A DNA stretch of 41,110 nt from Escherichia coli (lineage in GTDB: Bacteria; Pseudomonadota; Gammaproteobacteria; Enterobacterales; Enterobacteriaceae): assembly GCF_003334315.1 (NCBI RefSeq), contig NZ_QOWR01000045.1; one strand, given 5' to 3'. The notes below the pieces were generated by a model, which saw nothing but the letters and a program-made list of their open reading frames with translations, searched no databases and had not been told where the DNA came from. The translations under genes and the position numbers were made by a program. Positions 7,389 through 14,371 of this stretch are shown piece after piece (positions within the stretch are counted from its first letter, which is position 1; each line of letters opens with the position of its first letter).

Positions 7389-7916
7389 CTAAAAATAAGA
7401 TGTGATACCCAGGGTGACGATGTCGCTCATACGTCTTAGTTTCAGCTTGTACATAATGTTGAATTTCTGAATCTTTAATGTTTGTTGCGAAATATTGAGC
7501 GTCGACGTGATATTGCTTTCATTTTTATTTTTCAGAATCAGTTGCATAATTTTGAACTGATTATGTGAAAAACATAATTGTGAATTCTTATGGGGCAAGT
7601 GTTTACCATAAGTAATCTCAAGAAGATTTTTGATACTTTCTTTGCGGCTAACAAAATAAATAGGCGCTTTAGCTTTTAGTTTACTGATGTGATAAGGTGC
7701 CAAAACAATAATTCTCTCGGCATCTAATTTCTCCAGAAATTTAATCGCTTCTTCATCAAGGATATGATTGTGATAGGTATCAATGATAACCTTGAAGGGT
7801 TTATTGCCTACTTTTTTGATCTCTGACAGGGAATTGATTTTTATCATTTCGTGATTATCTTTCAACTGCCAAAAGCCCTGTAAAAGAAAAGAATCTTTCG
7901 TCATGAGAAAAATCAT
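7389..7916 (-). CDS. gadE: LuxR-family acid resistance activator GadE
   Basis: The 201-aa track ORF contains an internal Met giving a 175-aa protein starting MIFLMTKDSFLLQGFWQL with a C-terminal LuxR-type HTH. It is preceded by a long noncoding region of about 798 bp, as expected for gadE. Confidence 0.88.
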   Translation of the reverse strand: MIFLMTKDSFLLQGFWQLKDNHEMIKINSLSEIKKVGNKPFKVIIDTYHNHILDEEAIKFLEKLDAERIIVLAPYHISKLKAKAPIYFVSRKESIKNLLEITYGKHLPHKNSQLCFSHNQFKIMQLILKNKNESNITSTLNISQQTLKIQKFNIMYKLKLRRMSDIVTLGITSYF

Positions 7917-8714
7917 AACTTGCTCCTTAGCCGTTATCGTTTCGAATATGTCATCCTTTTCATTATTTACATCCTTGTCCGAATCGTTGTTCAATATAGT
8001 AAACGCCTATAAGAACTTTACCCTTCGTGAACTAATACGTCTATTAACACTAATCAATACTTCAGATTTATCCATCACGCACTCCATATATTGATCCTAA
8101 GTAAGATTCCTGGTTGTTATCAGCTTGTAAATAGCAAACAAAAAGTTAACGTTTGCGGATTACTGCCCAAGAATAAGTTATCAATAACCAGTTTGTGATC
8201 TCTGAAGAATATTACTAAAGTTAAAATGTAATCCGATTTAAATATCGAGTCTCCTTGTTTCGACTTAAGCTGGCAATTGGATTGCCAGCTTTCTTTTAAC
8301 GCATTGAAATTACCTGAGTAAATAACGCATTCATGTCTTCAGGTTTTTATATAGCGTCTGGAGACACGGATATTTATGCAATGTAATCAACGCCAGTTGC
8401 AAAAAAATGAACCCGGATTACTTATTTAACCGCCCATAGCATCAACGCTTACGGAACTCTTTGTTCACTTTCCCACAGCACTTTTAAAACATTAAACCTG
8501 ACAACGGAAAATATCAGCCATGATAATGTTTGAAATGGCTAATTTGCCATAGAGTGAAAAAAATTAGATGAAATTCAGTAGGTTGAAATAATCACTAGCA
8601 GGTAATTATTTCAATGATAGTGCGCAATTGATCTACAACACTGCGTAGCGGAGAGAGTATTAATCGGATCATAGTCACATCAAGTGACTATGATCCGGGT
8701 GACAACCGGGGTAA

Positions 8715-9287
8715 TTATTGCTGCTTAACGAACAAACTGGCGAAGCTGAACAGGCTGGCGGCGCTAAATATCAGTTCAATTCCCACCAGTGTGGAAACCA
8801 GCGTTACAGACACCATCGGCGTTGCACCAAGGAATATCCAGGCAATGACGATATCCAGCACACCAATAACGAGCTGTAGCCAGCTGCCTTTCATTGAACG
8901 CTGACGATACCAACTCATCAGGCGAATAATCCCTGCAACACAGAACAAACCGGCAATAAATGCCGCAATGGCAAAAATGCCCAGCTCCGGTGCGCGGATG
9001 AAGAAATAGCCGATCAATAAATAGGCGACTGCGACGAGGAAACCGGATAATACCGGCCAGAAATTATGACTGCGGTTGCTGAATAACCCGACAATAAGCG
9101 CAATACCCGAGCAGATTAATAATGCACCCACTACTGTGCTTAAAATATCGCCAGAGACGAACGGGAAACTGATACACAGCAACCCGACGATAAACAGCAG
9201 CACGGCAATAAACTGGATTGCTCTGCGATGTTTTTTAAGCATCTCCAGATCAAACTTCAAAATTGTTGCCTTATCTATATATAACAT
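8715..9287 (-). CDS. hdeD: Acid-resistance inner membrane protein HdeD
   Basis: 190-aa hydrophobic ORF starting MLYIDKATILKFDLEMLKKHRRAIQFIAVLL; divergent from hdeAB. Confidence 0.92.
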   Translation of the reverse strand: MLYIDKATILKFDLEMLKKHRRAIQFIAVLLFIVGLLCISFPFVSGDILSTVVGALLICSGIALIVGLFSNRSHNFWPVLSGFLVAVAYLLIGYFFIRAPELGIFAIAAFIAGLFCVAGIIRLMSWYRQRSMKGSWLQLVIGVLDIVIAWIFLGATPMVSVTLVSTLVGIELIFSAASLFSFASLFVKQQ

Positions 9288-9541
9288 AGAACCACCCTAT
9301 AAAATTAAGAAGAAAATCCCCTGCTATCAATCTATGCCAAAAACGCGTCTAAGAATGCAGTCGATTTAATAAAAATTTCCTAATTGCAGTATCTGATGCA
9401 TCTGTAACTCATTGTATTGAAATAAAAATATCTGATTTTGATATTTTCCATCAACATGACATATACAGAAAACCAGGTTATAACCTCAGTGTCGAAATTG
9501 ATTCGTGACGGCTCTTTCACTTTATAGTTGAGGATATTACG

Positions 9542-11754: not shown

Positions 11755-12321
11755 TTATTTGACCAGCTCAGGTGTTACCTGACTCACCGCATTGGTGTAG
11801 TAAGGCGCACCCCAGCCCGGTTCCGGCCAGAATGCACCATAGCCGTAATCCCACAGGTTATAGGTGGTATTAACCACTTCTCTCAAATGCCACACCTGGA
11901 TGCCCTGCATATTCACTTCCAGGAAGTTATACGGGACTTTATTGATAAAGCCTGGTTGTTCACCCTGAATGGTACCGAGGATGGTAACAAAGTGATTACG
12001 ATAGTTCACTGGATCAAGGAAGCCGCTTTGTCTGGCGAGCAGTCGGCCCTGATAGTTGGCTTCAATATCAGGCTTCGCATAGCTATCCAACGGTAATACA
12101 GCGATTTCTAACAACGTATCCGTTTTGCCATTGATAACGTTGATAACCTTCCCACCAAAGCGCGCTTGTTGACCAACATATAACCCCGGCTGGTTATGAA
12201 CAGCAACAAAACTTTTTTGAATATCAGGTTGGTTATTGCCTTTGATATTTTGCGGAATTGAACTACATGCGGCAAGCAAAAATGAAAGGCTGAGGATGAG
12301 TGCACCTTTTGTCATGTTCAT
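11755..12321 (-). CDS. slp: Starvation-inducible outer membrane lipoprotein Slp
   Basis: Internal Met of the 243-aa track ORF gives a 188-aa protein starting MNMTKGALILSLSFLLAACSS (lipoprotein signal plus lipobox). Confidence 0.88.
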   Translation of the reverse strand: MNMTKGALILSLSFLLAACSSIPQNIKGNNQPDIQKSFVAVHNQPGLYVGQQARFGGKVINVINGKTDTLLEIAVLPLDSYAKPDIEANYQGRLLARQSGFLDPVNYRNHFVTILGTIQGEQPGFINKVPYNFLEVNMQGIQVWHLREVVNTTYNLWDYGYGAFWPEPGWGAPYYTNAVSQVTPELVK

Positions 12322-12567
12322 GTTACTATCCTTATCAACAAATATTAAAACCATAATAGATATTTCTTTATAGTTTTCATCTGATTCTGAGGTGATATGC
12401 CTGATAGTAACGTAAACCTGTCTGATGTTTATATCCCTTCTGTTTAGTTCAATTCCGTTATTTTGGGGCGTGGTATGAGTATCCATCGCCCAATAATATA
12501 ACCCTTTGTTTTAAAATTACATAAAATCTATTTTTATTCAATGATTATAAAGTGCTAATAATCAATA

Positions 12568-13792
12568 TTATGGTATTATATTCTGATAATGATTTGATAA
12601 GCGAATTCTGTTGCCAGATGGTATTTCTATTTCCACCCCATAATTTATATCTTTTTCATTAGGCAGATCTCTCTTTAAATAAAAGGGGTATGAAATCTTT
12701 TCGGGTTGAAGTGTCTCGTAATGAAATGCTATGAATTCATTTTTAGACATTGTTGCCCATTTTTGAATTTTATTGTATAGAGAGGGTGTTGTAAACTCTT
12801 GAAGTTGTTTATAACATATTTTTTTTGAACTCTTGCTTATATTTTAATATGTCATCAAATGAAAGACTCACTACCTTTGCCTCTAAGAAATCAATTATTC
12901 TCGAAGCAATTTCCGCTTTCGCGCGTAAAGAGTTGTCATTAATAGTTAACAATGTAGAAAACAAGCCATTGATTTGTTTGTCAAGATGCTGTTCATATTT
13001 ATGTAGTTTGGGGATGGGATTTTCCTTGTGTGAAAAAATAGTGTTAAATAAATTTGCGTCAGTGAAATTTATATTAAGTAGATCTTCAAAATAAAAATTT
13101 GATAAGGTTAGGACTAGCCTGGACATATCTTGCCCTGTCATGTTGAAATCAATAAAGTCGCATCCAGCAAGGGCTTCCATCCTATTTTCATTTTCACTGT
13201 GCTCAATATACAGCTTCGCCATTTTTAAGTACAAGCTTTGAATGTCTCTTATATCAGTTGGTAAGTCAGCTCGTTGCCCAGCAAAATTTTTATTATCGGA
13301 AGAAACGGTTTGAACACTGAATATTTCGGGTATTCCTTCTTCTACGAGAATTTTAGTTATGATTGGATTGTTGGGTTCTGGATTAACGACAACAATGATT
13401 TGACATACAGAATCCTTATCCTTTTCGTATCTAATGTTATGAATCTGATTAAGTATTGATTGTGTCTGTTGCGTAAGTGGTGTCGAACTTATCGTTTCAA
13501 TGTTATTAATAAGACTTACAAGTTGAACCACAACTTTTGAGTAGTCTGCATTTGTATATGTGGTGTTCGTGTGGCATGCATTAATTTGTTGGAGTTGTTG
13601 TTGCGCTAAATCAAATTGTTCAGGATTGTATCCTTCTCCAGAGAATGTGGAATTAATGGGTTGTTGTTCTTCCCAATTATCACAAGGCCACTTCGGTGTG
13701 TCTGGCGTTTTAACATTATCGGTATTTGTTGTGCAGTTATAAATATCGCCGTGATATGTATTTATTATACCTGGGGTAAAGTCAATTGACAT
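12568..13792 (-). pseudogene. yhiS: yhiS-like AT-rich gene encoding a Q/N/T-rich protein with a pentapeptide-repeat-like segment; split into 327-aa and 60-aa ORFs by a +1 frameshift at an A8 tract
   Basis: Two consecutive out-of-frame minus-strand ORFs (13792..12809 and 12750..12568). The second frame is open upstream through the A8 run at about 12819-12826 (minus-strand AAAAAAAA), so removing one A yields a continuous reading frame of about 407 codons. Position between arsC and slp matches where I remember yhiS. No IS element is present. Confidence 0.55.
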
Positions 13793-14371
13793 AACATTCC
13801 TTATTCATCATCTGTTTTATGCTAAGGTTTTTAAATTGGATAATTAGAACAGGAATGGATTTTCTTCTACACACAATAAATATAATGCGTTATATCTTCC
13901 TGATATAATTACCTTTAAATTCCCTTTCATTTCCACCCGGTAATATTTGTGTATAAAAAAAGGCAGTGATAGTATCGTAAAGGAAAACGTTAACAACTAT
14001 CAAAAAGCGCTCATTTTAAAAAGTTATTTTGTTCTCCGATAGTGTGTGAAGTAATATTTTTGTGATGTTTTAGATGTGTAATAATGAACCAGGTTAAAGT
14101 GTATTTAAAAATGTGTTGTATTAGCGACTGAAATCTGCCTTTTAAAAAGGAGGAGGGTACTGAGACAAAGAGTCATTGCTTCTCCGATAAAATGTCAGAG
14201 AAGCATGATTACGTGGTTATTGTCTGTTGATGACTTGTTGACCGAGCCGTCATCATTCTCAATGCATTAGTTAAATCATTTGTGATTTTTAAGGATTATC
14301 CTGTCTATGATTTTCTACTTAGAAGGATATGGCACTAACTATGCATCTTATAGTTTACTGCTGGCATCTAT

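Follow-up and report, generated by a model that had tools for sequence, protein, structure and literature searches.

The AT-rich block at positions 7389-14371 of the window (the whole 41,110-nt stretch of Escherichia coli DNA analysed here) is best explained, with a probability of about 0.9, as acid fitness island DNA located in an interval found only in Escherichia, subject to silencing by H-NS and StpA, and ending in a 579-bp gap of composite structure. By its genes and their order, the block is the right half of the island (gadE, hdeD, hdeAB-yhiD, dctR and slp) together with yhiS.

Gene content and composition of the block

Window positions 1-13044 are collinear with and 99.2% identical to E. 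coli K-12 MG1655, and positions 7000-15500 are 100% identical to many E. coli chromosomes carrying the expected annotation. The acid fitness island genes are present in the order slp-dctR / yhiD-hdeBA / hdeD / gadE-mdtEF / gadW / gadX / gadA. A preliminary description, made from the sequence, had named the island and its genes, and both the annotation of the identical records and the MG1655 alignment agree with it. The features of the island in the window are the following.

1-2820: gadA 3' end, gadX, GadY sRNA (1308-1421) and gadW; left AT-rich part of the island, 40.1% GC
2755-7050, minus strand: mdtEF efflux genes, a GC-normal (53%) insert inside the island
7200-7290, minus strand: GadF sRNA (gadE 3'UTR; Rfam ES205), 91/91 identical to K-12 gadF (at 7290-7200)
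7389-7916, minus strand: gadE, annotated in the identical record NZ_CP059929, 99.8-100% identical to K-12
7917-8714: gadE regulatory region, 798 bp, 36% GC, 797/798 identical to the K-12 hdeD-gadE intergenic region
8228-8297, plus strand: arrS, 70/70 identical to K-12 arrS
8715-9287, minus strand: hdeD, acid-resistance membrane protein (annotation transfer)
9288-9541: hdeD-hdeA divergent promoter region, 254 bp, 33% GC, 254/254 identical to K-12
9542-11027, plus strand: hdeA-hdeB-yhiD operon, periplasmic acid chaperones and MgtC-family membrane protein
11069-12321, minus strand: slp-dctR operon, outer-membrane lipoprotein Slp and LuxR-family DctR

The GC content of the block is 38.3%, compared with 52-56% in GC-normal DNA of the window (53.4% for mdtEF, 2755-7050; 51.7% for 15910-31599; 55.7% for 35739-41110), in agreement with the AT-richness originally noticed by eye from gadE to yhiS. 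Maximum-likelihood segmentation of the whole window yielded six segments.

Segment 1, 1-2820: 40.1% GC
Segment 2, 2821-7360: 53.2% GC
Segment 3, 7361-15560: 39.2% GC
Segment 4, 15561-31440: 51.9% GC
Segment 5, 31441-35600: 35.7% GC
Segment 6, 35601-41110: 55.7% GC

The left edge of segment 3 lies within 30 bp of the block start as first delineated, and its right edge about 1.2 kb beyond the original end, either in the permease gene (45.8% GC) or on its far side. The recurrence of the compositional shift reported for about 31.6-35.4 kb (yhiL/yhiJ) corresponds to segment 5, which comprises the promoter side of yhiM, the yhiL pseudogene and yhiJ. The two proteins YhiL and YhiJ share 36% identity and, by BLASTP, are paralogous to each other only; yhiS, considered as a further paralogue that would link the two AT-rich blocks, was rejected, as BLASTP detects no similarity.

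At third codon positions, the eight block genes have a lower GC fraction (0.31-0.55) than 17 window genes with normal GC (0.49-0.69; Mann-Whitney p = 2e-6). The codon adaptation index, calculated with Sharp-Li weights, is only slightly lower (medians of 0.25 and 0.32; p = 0.046), and hdeA (0.53) and hdeB (0.38) have high values. The compositional signal is carried by GC and GC3; the difference in codon adaptation is weak. GC is unevenly distributed within the block: gadE (33%), yhiS (34.5%) and the intergenic regions (30-38%) are the poorest, and hdeD, yhiD and slp have about 46%. All three AT-rich segments carry TpA steps and A/T tracts (77 and 16 per kb) at about double the density of the GC-normal ones (34-46 and 6-9 per kb). 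Counts of the high-affinity H-NS motif were mildly higher in AT-rich segments and carried no information beyond AT content.

The preliminary description placed the block next to GC-normal core genes, which holds for neither side. To the left, mdtEF belongs to the gadE operon (gadE and mdtEF are co-transcribed; PMC3708157), with the AT-rich gadW and gadX beyond it; to the right lies an accessory module of an ArsR-like regulator and an ArsP_1 permease, followed by arsRBC. Both flanks fall within one Escherichia-specific gor-ccp interval.

The two intergenic regions singled out as unusually long have exactly the lengths claimed, 798 bp (7917-8714) and 579 bp (13793-14371), and are the longest and third-longest in the window; the arsR-gor gap has 645 bp and contains dinQ and agrB. 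The 798-bp region upstream of gadE is known as a "sensory integration" promoter with P1, P2 and P3 (PMC3708157), and the antisense sRNA ArrS (PMC6755755), whose presence there had been guessed, is encoded inside it, with a terminator-like hairpin (8267-8291) and a subsequent T-run on the plus strand. GadF matches Rfam RF02754 (7200-7271, 105 bits) just left of the original block start, and gadY is also 100% identical to K-12; Rfam detects GadY and ES205, and GadY, ArrS and GadF all occupy their K-12 positions. An Rfam scan of 7000-15950 at E <= 1 revealed nothing new, did not match ArrS, and gave chance-level or REP-like matches near 15784-15868. A scan of both long gaps for sigma-70 consensus promoters, uninformative for activator- and sigma-S-dependent promoters, found no excess over shuffled sequence. 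The GAD-box consensus TTAGGATTTTGTTATTTAAA had no match with up to three mismatches, a result of little weight, since the window does not include the canonical GAD boxes, which precede gadA and gadBC.

The yhiS pseudogene and the composite 579-bp gap

The right end of the block consists of yhiS and its upstream DNA, joined to an accessory module.

12568-13792, minus strand: yhiS pseudogene (PGAP note 'frameshifted'; alignments)
13793-14110: proximal part of the 579-bp gap, 318 bp of yhiS upstream DNA, about 90-95% identical to K-12, in all E. coli compared
14111-15706: accessory module, 1.6 kb, absent from K-12 and O157
14111-14371: 3' flank of the module, 261 bp
14372-15373, minus strand: ArsP_1-family permease (Pfam PF03773)
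15480-15776, plus strand: ArsR/SmtB-family regulator (NCBIfam HTH_metalloreg match)

Rather than an intact "yhiS-like gene", this strain carries a yhiS pseudogene with a +1 frameshift in an A8 run (12819-12826); the intact form has 407 aa. A sequencing error was rejected as the cause, given that the same A8 version occurs in 60 independent complete genomes. Other frameshifts, IS5, IS1 and deletions have inactivated yhiS independently many times elsewhere. No other part of the block is as AT-rich or as polymorphic as this gene: its central segment differs by about 16% at the DNA level from the common alleles (dS 0.45, dN/dS 0.39), unlike the surrounding island, which is 99.8-100% identical to K-12. 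All 135 homologues come from E. coli or Shigella. YhiS matched no Pfam, NCBIfam or PADLOC family; a hint of pentapeptide repeats was non-significant (Pfam E = 6.4; PDB chains at E of about 0.1, residues 207-255), and an AlphaFold2 model built with 17 close homologues had a mean pLDDT of 41.7. The published span of the island, from slp to gadA with 13 genes, leaves yhiS outside (bioRxiv 10.64898/2026.02.10.705075), and yhiS is absent beside slp-dctR in E. albertii and Escherichia 'E69'. It is the sole part of the block not already explained. Its polymorphism might be maintained by balancing or diversifying selection, for example on a phage or host recognition target, or result from repeated import from unsampled Escherichia lineages, a proposal to which we assign a low probability; alternatively, yhiS is simply a decaying silenced gene.

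The 579-bp gap, first taken for a long regulatory region, is by alignment a junction between yhiS upstream DNA and the tail of the permease module, not a single regulatory unit. The module occurs in 2388 of 5426 complete E. coli genomes, with copies of about 84% identity on plasmids. It is unlikely that the gap serves as a regulatory region in its own right or contains an unannotated sRNA or small protein, in the manner of the gadE upstream region. Across strains, the DNA proximal to yhiS is better conserved (13501-14000, 92-99.6%) than the middle of the yhiS coding sequence (82-86%), the gap contains a single promoter-like site (14003-13974, minus strand), and StpA/H-NS binding at yhiS has been mentioned (bioRxiv 10.64898/2026.02.10.705075). 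Promoter-like sites are, however, not enriched in the gap relative to shuffled sequences, there are zero Rfam matches even at E <= 1, and its ORFs are short (21-50 aa) and unconserved; the distal 261 bp are missing from K-12 and O157, where the corresponding 628-bp gap contains a REP-like sequence. Moreover, yhiS does not respond to YdeO overexpression (PMC4222967) and, in this strain, the gene that the gap would serve is a pseudogene.

Probable origin of the block and its predicted silencing by H-NS

The block is an old, fixed acquisition, not a recent one. The prlC-rlmJ-gor synteny is conserved in 80 species: 69 show the complete trio, and for the remaining 11 the sequence upstream was too short or gave no prlC match. 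Within 10 kb of gor, all 78 loci from non-Escherichia species lack slp, dctR, hde genes, gadE, yhiS and the permease, and treF or ccp-treF begins 50-300 bp after gor in many loci of Enterobacter, Citrobacter and Trabulsiella. The stretch of about 20 kb that separates gor from ccp/treF is, among the taxa compared, restricted to Escherichia, where its GC is a mosaic and its cargo varies. Within E. coli, the core of the block is present in 5424 of 5426 genomes, and its sub-modules vary, including the permease module, the chu insertion, and yhiS deletions and IS insertions. The case for horizontal acquisition is made by composition and the empty syntenic site, because the block has no integrase or transposase among its annotated genes, no tRNA and no meaningful flanking repeats, and is nearly universal in E. 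coli. The original claim of foreign origin is supported to this extent, with no visible transfer mechanism or donor.

The same lack of mobility hallmarks and the fixation in E. coli, together with the high codon adaptation of hdeA and hdeB and the occurrence of slp-dctR in E. albertii, would fit a native origin, that is, ancestral enterobacterial DNA kept AT-rich by selection for H-NS regulation or promoters and lost in other genera. This is very improbable, as each of the 78 non-Escherichia species sampled would have had to lose the DNA independently, many of them with gor directly beside ccp/treF, and it sits poorly with the mosaic and variable interval. A recently mobile island, in which one integrative element delivered the whole of 7.4-14.4 kb in a single event, might be suggested by the abrupt compositional changes near 7360 and 15560 and the plasmid-borne edge sub-modules, but is already contradicted by the data: the edges lack integrase, transposase, tRNA and direct repeats, the left one falls inside the gadE-mdtEF operon, the block is near-universal in E. 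coli with an internal GC spread of 33-46%, and E. albertii, with slp-dctR-chu and neither yhiS nor ars, indicates stepwise assembly.

Under the favoured reading of an old acquisition, the gor-ccp/treF interval would have been assembled from unlike pieces, the AT-rich gad/hde/slp/yhiS DNA and the GC-normal mdtEF and arsRBC. H-NS/StpA filaments would bind and silence the AT-rich DNA, and several promoters in the 798-bp region would be relieved by EvgA-YdeO, GadX/W, GadE itself, ArcA and sigma-S, which may displace H-NS there; ArrS would be transcribed from this region against the longest gadE leader. At the other end, the 579-bp gap joins DNA of the yhiS promoter side to the tail of the ArsR-like/permease module.

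The silencing proposed in the preliminary description is documented in K-12 for the promoters of the island and the yhiL/yhiM/yhiJ spacers (PMC3708157, PMC3946193, PMC11230228, bioRxiv 10.64898/2026.02.10.705075). For K-12, these sources report both physical occupancy by H-NS and derepression in hns/stpA mutants. Genomic SELEX identified H-NS sites at slp, hdeAB, gadW/gadY, gadX, and in the yhiL/yhiM and yhiJ/yhiL spacers (PMC3946193); IPOD-HR occupancy, seen also at the hdeD-hdeA promoter region, disappears in the stpA hns double mutant (PMC11230228); and the H-NS ChIP signal is widespread over the island (bioRxiv 10.64898/2026.02.10.705075). The slp-dctR operon, the conventional right end of the island, has a YdeO-binding upstream spacer (PMC4222967). 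Composition, gene identities, sRNA positions, module boundaries and the lack of this DNA at the corresponding site of other genera were established directly here; H-NS binding, promoter positions and regulator action are taken from the K-12 literature. The sequence from gadE to slp is 99-100% identical to K-12, and yhiS differs by about 16%. Silencing of this locus by H-NS/StpA is accordingly a prediction from the K-12 literature.

Relationship to known islands and significance

Compared with the K-12 acid fitness island, the locus has the same genes, order and orientation, identical arrS, gadF and gadY, and a 798-bp promoter region differing by one base. The block as first delineated covers only gadE to slp of that island, plus yhiS, which is outside it as usually defined. 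The yhiS gene of K-12 is disrupted by IS5, whereas here there is a frameshift and no IS5, and K-12 lacks the 1.6-kb ArsR-like/permease module. O157:H7 and other chu-positive strains share slp-dctR, the arsRBC-gor flank and yhiS; in these, the chu haem-uptake cluster adjoins dctR, and the compared loci end inside chu. According to the literature, the chu insertion point lies between dctR and yhiD. O157 lacks the permease module, and its YhiS is intact but shorter (371 aa), encoded by a different allele class whose central portion is about 84% identical at the nucleotide level.

The block also resembles H-NS-silenced xenogeneic DNA such as the Salmonella pathogenicity islands (Navarre et al. 2006, as cited in PMC3946193) in a GC content 12-15 points below the host average, richness in TpA and A-tracts, absence from the syntenic site of relatives and, according to the literature, control by counter-silencing activators. 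Unlike those islands, it is fixed in the species, beneficial (acid resistance) and free of mobility genes, and is an old domesticated acquisition, not a strain-specific island.

The observation of an AT-rich acid-resistance island is correct and already textbook knowledge. Added here are the exact compositional boundaries, a direct demonstration of the empty syntenic site across 80 species, the recognition of the 579-bp gap as a junction with an accessory ArsR-like/ArsP_1 module, and that of yhiS as a fast-diverging, repeatedly broken orphan; none of the four alters current understanding of the acid fitness island, which serves the survival of E. coli in stomach acid and is a model, established in K-12, for H-NS silencing and counter-silencing.

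Base composition and identity of the locus

The window is a segment of the E. coli chromosome, inverted relative to MG1655 coordinates ~3.625-3.666 Mb. Over positions 7000-15500, many complete E. coli chromosomes, such as that of strain 162.2, match the window at 100% identity, and the annotation of the identical records gives the gene order mdtE, gadE, hdeD, hdeA, hdeB, yhiD, dctR, slp, a frameshifted hypothetical gene (yhiS), permease, ArsR/SmtB-family regulator, arsC, arsB. Alignment to K-12 yielded 99.2% identity for 1-13044, only 89.7% for 13049-14110, 97.8% for 15707-18297 and 99.2% for 20041-41110, with no K-12 counterpart of 14111-15706. 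Strain 162.2 (NZ_CP059929.1, positions 30279-41110 of the fetched locus) is otherwise the same as the window as far as yhiN, beyond which a Tn7-like element with TnsA/B/C/D-like genes and sil/cop metal-resistance genes replace the yhiM-yhiL-yhiJ side. A single copy of an AgrA/AgrB-type antisense RNA adjoins dinQ at 18195-18278 (Rfam AgrB, 104 bits); K-12 carries agrA and agrB in tandem, and the copy in the window is 93-94% identical to each.

The block at 7389-14371 is AT-rich, as the preliminary description proposed, with a GC content of 38.3% compared to 53.4% in mdtEF, 51.7% in 15910-31599 and 55.7% in 35739-41110. Likelihood segmentation delineated three AT-rich segments, 1-2820 (40.1% GC), 7361-15560 (39.2%) and 31441-35600 (35.7%), the last of which corresponds to the second compositional shift reported at yhiL/yhiJ. 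The left edge of the block thus holds, whereas the compositional edge on the right lies ~1.2 kb further out. The block genes are cleanly separated from the GC-normal genes by GC3 (p = 2e-6) but only weakly by codon adaptation index, calculated with Sharp-Li weights (p = 0.046; hdeA, 0.53). The AT-rich segments have roughly double the density of TpA steps and A/T tracts. The two long intergenic regions have the lengths originally given, precisely 798 bp (7917-8714) and 579 bp (13793-14371).

Within the yhiL/yhiJ segment, yhiL, which is frameshifted in both the window and K-12, and yhiJ (31847-35373 for the pair) are paralogues with 36% identity over ~280 aa. Both contain metallophosphoesterase-like motifs (GDxxGDR ... 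GNHE), and a weak NCBIfam match to the Wip domain of a Legionella Dot/Icm effector (E = 0.002) is far below the cut-off. The nearby yhiM (30449-31500, minus strand), encoding an inner membrane protein linked to acid resistance, equals that of K-12 save for a single-base deletion at ~30973 (K-12 nt 528), which yields two ORFs, 30952-31599 and 30449-30985; either yhiM is a pseudogene in this strain or the deletion is a sequencing error.

The gadE upstream region and H-NS

The 798-bp region differs from K-12 by one base and is the promoter known from the literature as the 'unusually long 798-bp gadE promoter' or the 'sensory integration region'. In K-12, transcription from this promoter starts at -124, -324/-317 and -566, and the promoter is occupied by H-NS and activated by EvgA-YdeO, GadX/W, GadE, sigma-S and ArcA (PMC3708157). 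The small RNA arrS, guessed to lie upstream of gadE, is indeed located there. The RNAs identified are:

8228-8297, plus strand: arrS, matching K-12 arrS at 70/70 positions
7200-7290, minus strand: GadF (Rfam ES205)
1308-1421, minus strand: GadY

ArrS is antisense to the long gadE leader (PMC6755755), and a strong terminator-like hairpin lies within it at 8267-8291. Antisense to GadF, in the gadE-mdtE spacer, PGAP predicts a 92-aa 'hypothetical protein' (WP_001205329.1; 7110-7388, plus strand), the ORF of which ends one base short of the gadE stop codon. No family match was obtained for this protein, which is probably a spurious gene call.

In K-12, H-NS SELEX sites have been mapped to the slp, hdeAB, gadW/gadY, gadX/gadA, yhiL/yhiM and yhiJ/yhiL spacers (PMC3946193). 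Protein occupancy over hdeAB-yhiD, hdeD, arrS and gadEF is mostly lost in an stpA hns double mutant (PMC11230228), and the ChIP signal is widespread across the island, with slp-dctR and yhiS bound by StpA (bioRxiv 10.64898/2026.02.10.705075).

The gor-ccp interval across species

Using Gor as the query, we collected one locus, including 10 kb on either side, from each of 80 species. All three genes of prlC-rlmJ-gor are retained in 69 of the 80 loci, the upstream flank of the other 11 being too short or lacking a prlC match. The distance from gor to the start of treF or ccp-treF is 50-300 bp in many of the loci, including ones from Enterobacter, Citrobacter and Trabulsiella; in E. coli, ~20 kb separates gor from ccp/treF. 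None of slp, dctR, hde, gadE, yhiS and the permease gene was detected within 10 kb of gor in any of the 78 non-Escherichia loci. E. albertii and the divergent Escherichia 'E69' possess slp-dctR-chu and lack yhiS, and their cargo adjoining gor differs, consisting of a toxin-antitoxin-like pair in one and arsRBC alone in the other. Given the empty site outside Escherichia and the differing cargo within the genus, the whole gor-ccp interval is an Escherichia-specific mosaic, assembled stepwise. Such a mosaic supports the proposed horizontal acquisition of the block and contradicts the view that it abuts core genes: mdtEF (53% GC) forms an operon with gadE, and this variable interval also takes in the ars genes and the permease module. 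As for marks of mobility, no tRNA, integrase or flanking repeat was found. The block is present in 5424 of 5426 E. coli genomes; its acquisition is old and fixed.

In the dinQ-slp interval of E. albertii (9795-10507 of the comparison locus), a small two-gene cassette resembling a HigB/HigA-type toxin-antitoxin pair occupies the place of arsRBC and yhiS in E. coli, and the gor-slp junction is therefore a cargo hotspot. At the same gor-downstream hotspot, Citrobacter sp. FP75 carries a different AT-rich insert in the 10 kb downstream of gor (39.6% GC vs 54% upstream), encoding an AraC-family protein with 34% identity to GadW.

The 579-bp junction and yhiS

The 579-bp gap is a junction and not a single unit. 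Its yhiS-proximal 318 bp (13793-14110) are common to all E. coli compared, and the distal 261 bp (14111-14371) are part of a 1.6-kb module (14111-15706) located between yhiS and arsC, which encodes an ArsP_1-family permease (Pfam PF03773) and a divergent ArsR/SmtB regulator (NCBIfam). In K-12 and O157, the module is missing and REP-like sequence takes its place. Of 5426 complete E. coli genomes, 2388 contain it, and copies with ~84% identity are carried on plasmids, such as one adjacent to IS26 on pD72-F33. The NCBIfam similarity of the module to the Cu/Zn efflux protein SO_0444 and to SaoE is far below the cut-offs. In the gap, neither an Rfam family nor a conserved small ORF was detected, and promoter-like sites are not in excess.

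The 'yhiS-like gene' (ORF 12809-13792) covers the first 327 codons of a gene of 407 codons, whose reading frame is broken by a +1 shift within the A8 tract at 12819-12826. The same frameshifted version occurs in 60 complete genomes, and an intact A7 form exists. Other lesions include a T-run deletion (strain A41), another frameshift (GPEC856), IS5 (K-12), IS1 and partial deletions; many independent events have inactivated yhiS. A divergence hotspot lies in the central part (12501-13500), which shows 82-86% identity to K-12, O157, A41 and GPEC856 compared to 99-100% to K-12 in the rest of the island, and 12322-14110 is found at >=99% identity in only 386 of 5418 genomes. For codons 121-370, dS between the window and K-12 alleles is 0.45 and dN/dS is 0.39, against 0.03-0.13 and 0-0.17, respectively, for neighbouring genes between phylogroups. 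E. coli and Shigella account for all 135 detectable homologues, not one of which contains a Pfam domain, and yhiS is an orphan confined to these bacteria; family searches and structure prediction (pLDDT 41.7) for YhiS gave nothing usable.

Overall, the preliminary observation was correct and its interpretation largely right; this is a textbook locus, and what was found is already known. The sole part of the block without an existing explanation is yhiS, most likely a silenced orphan that is simply decaying.
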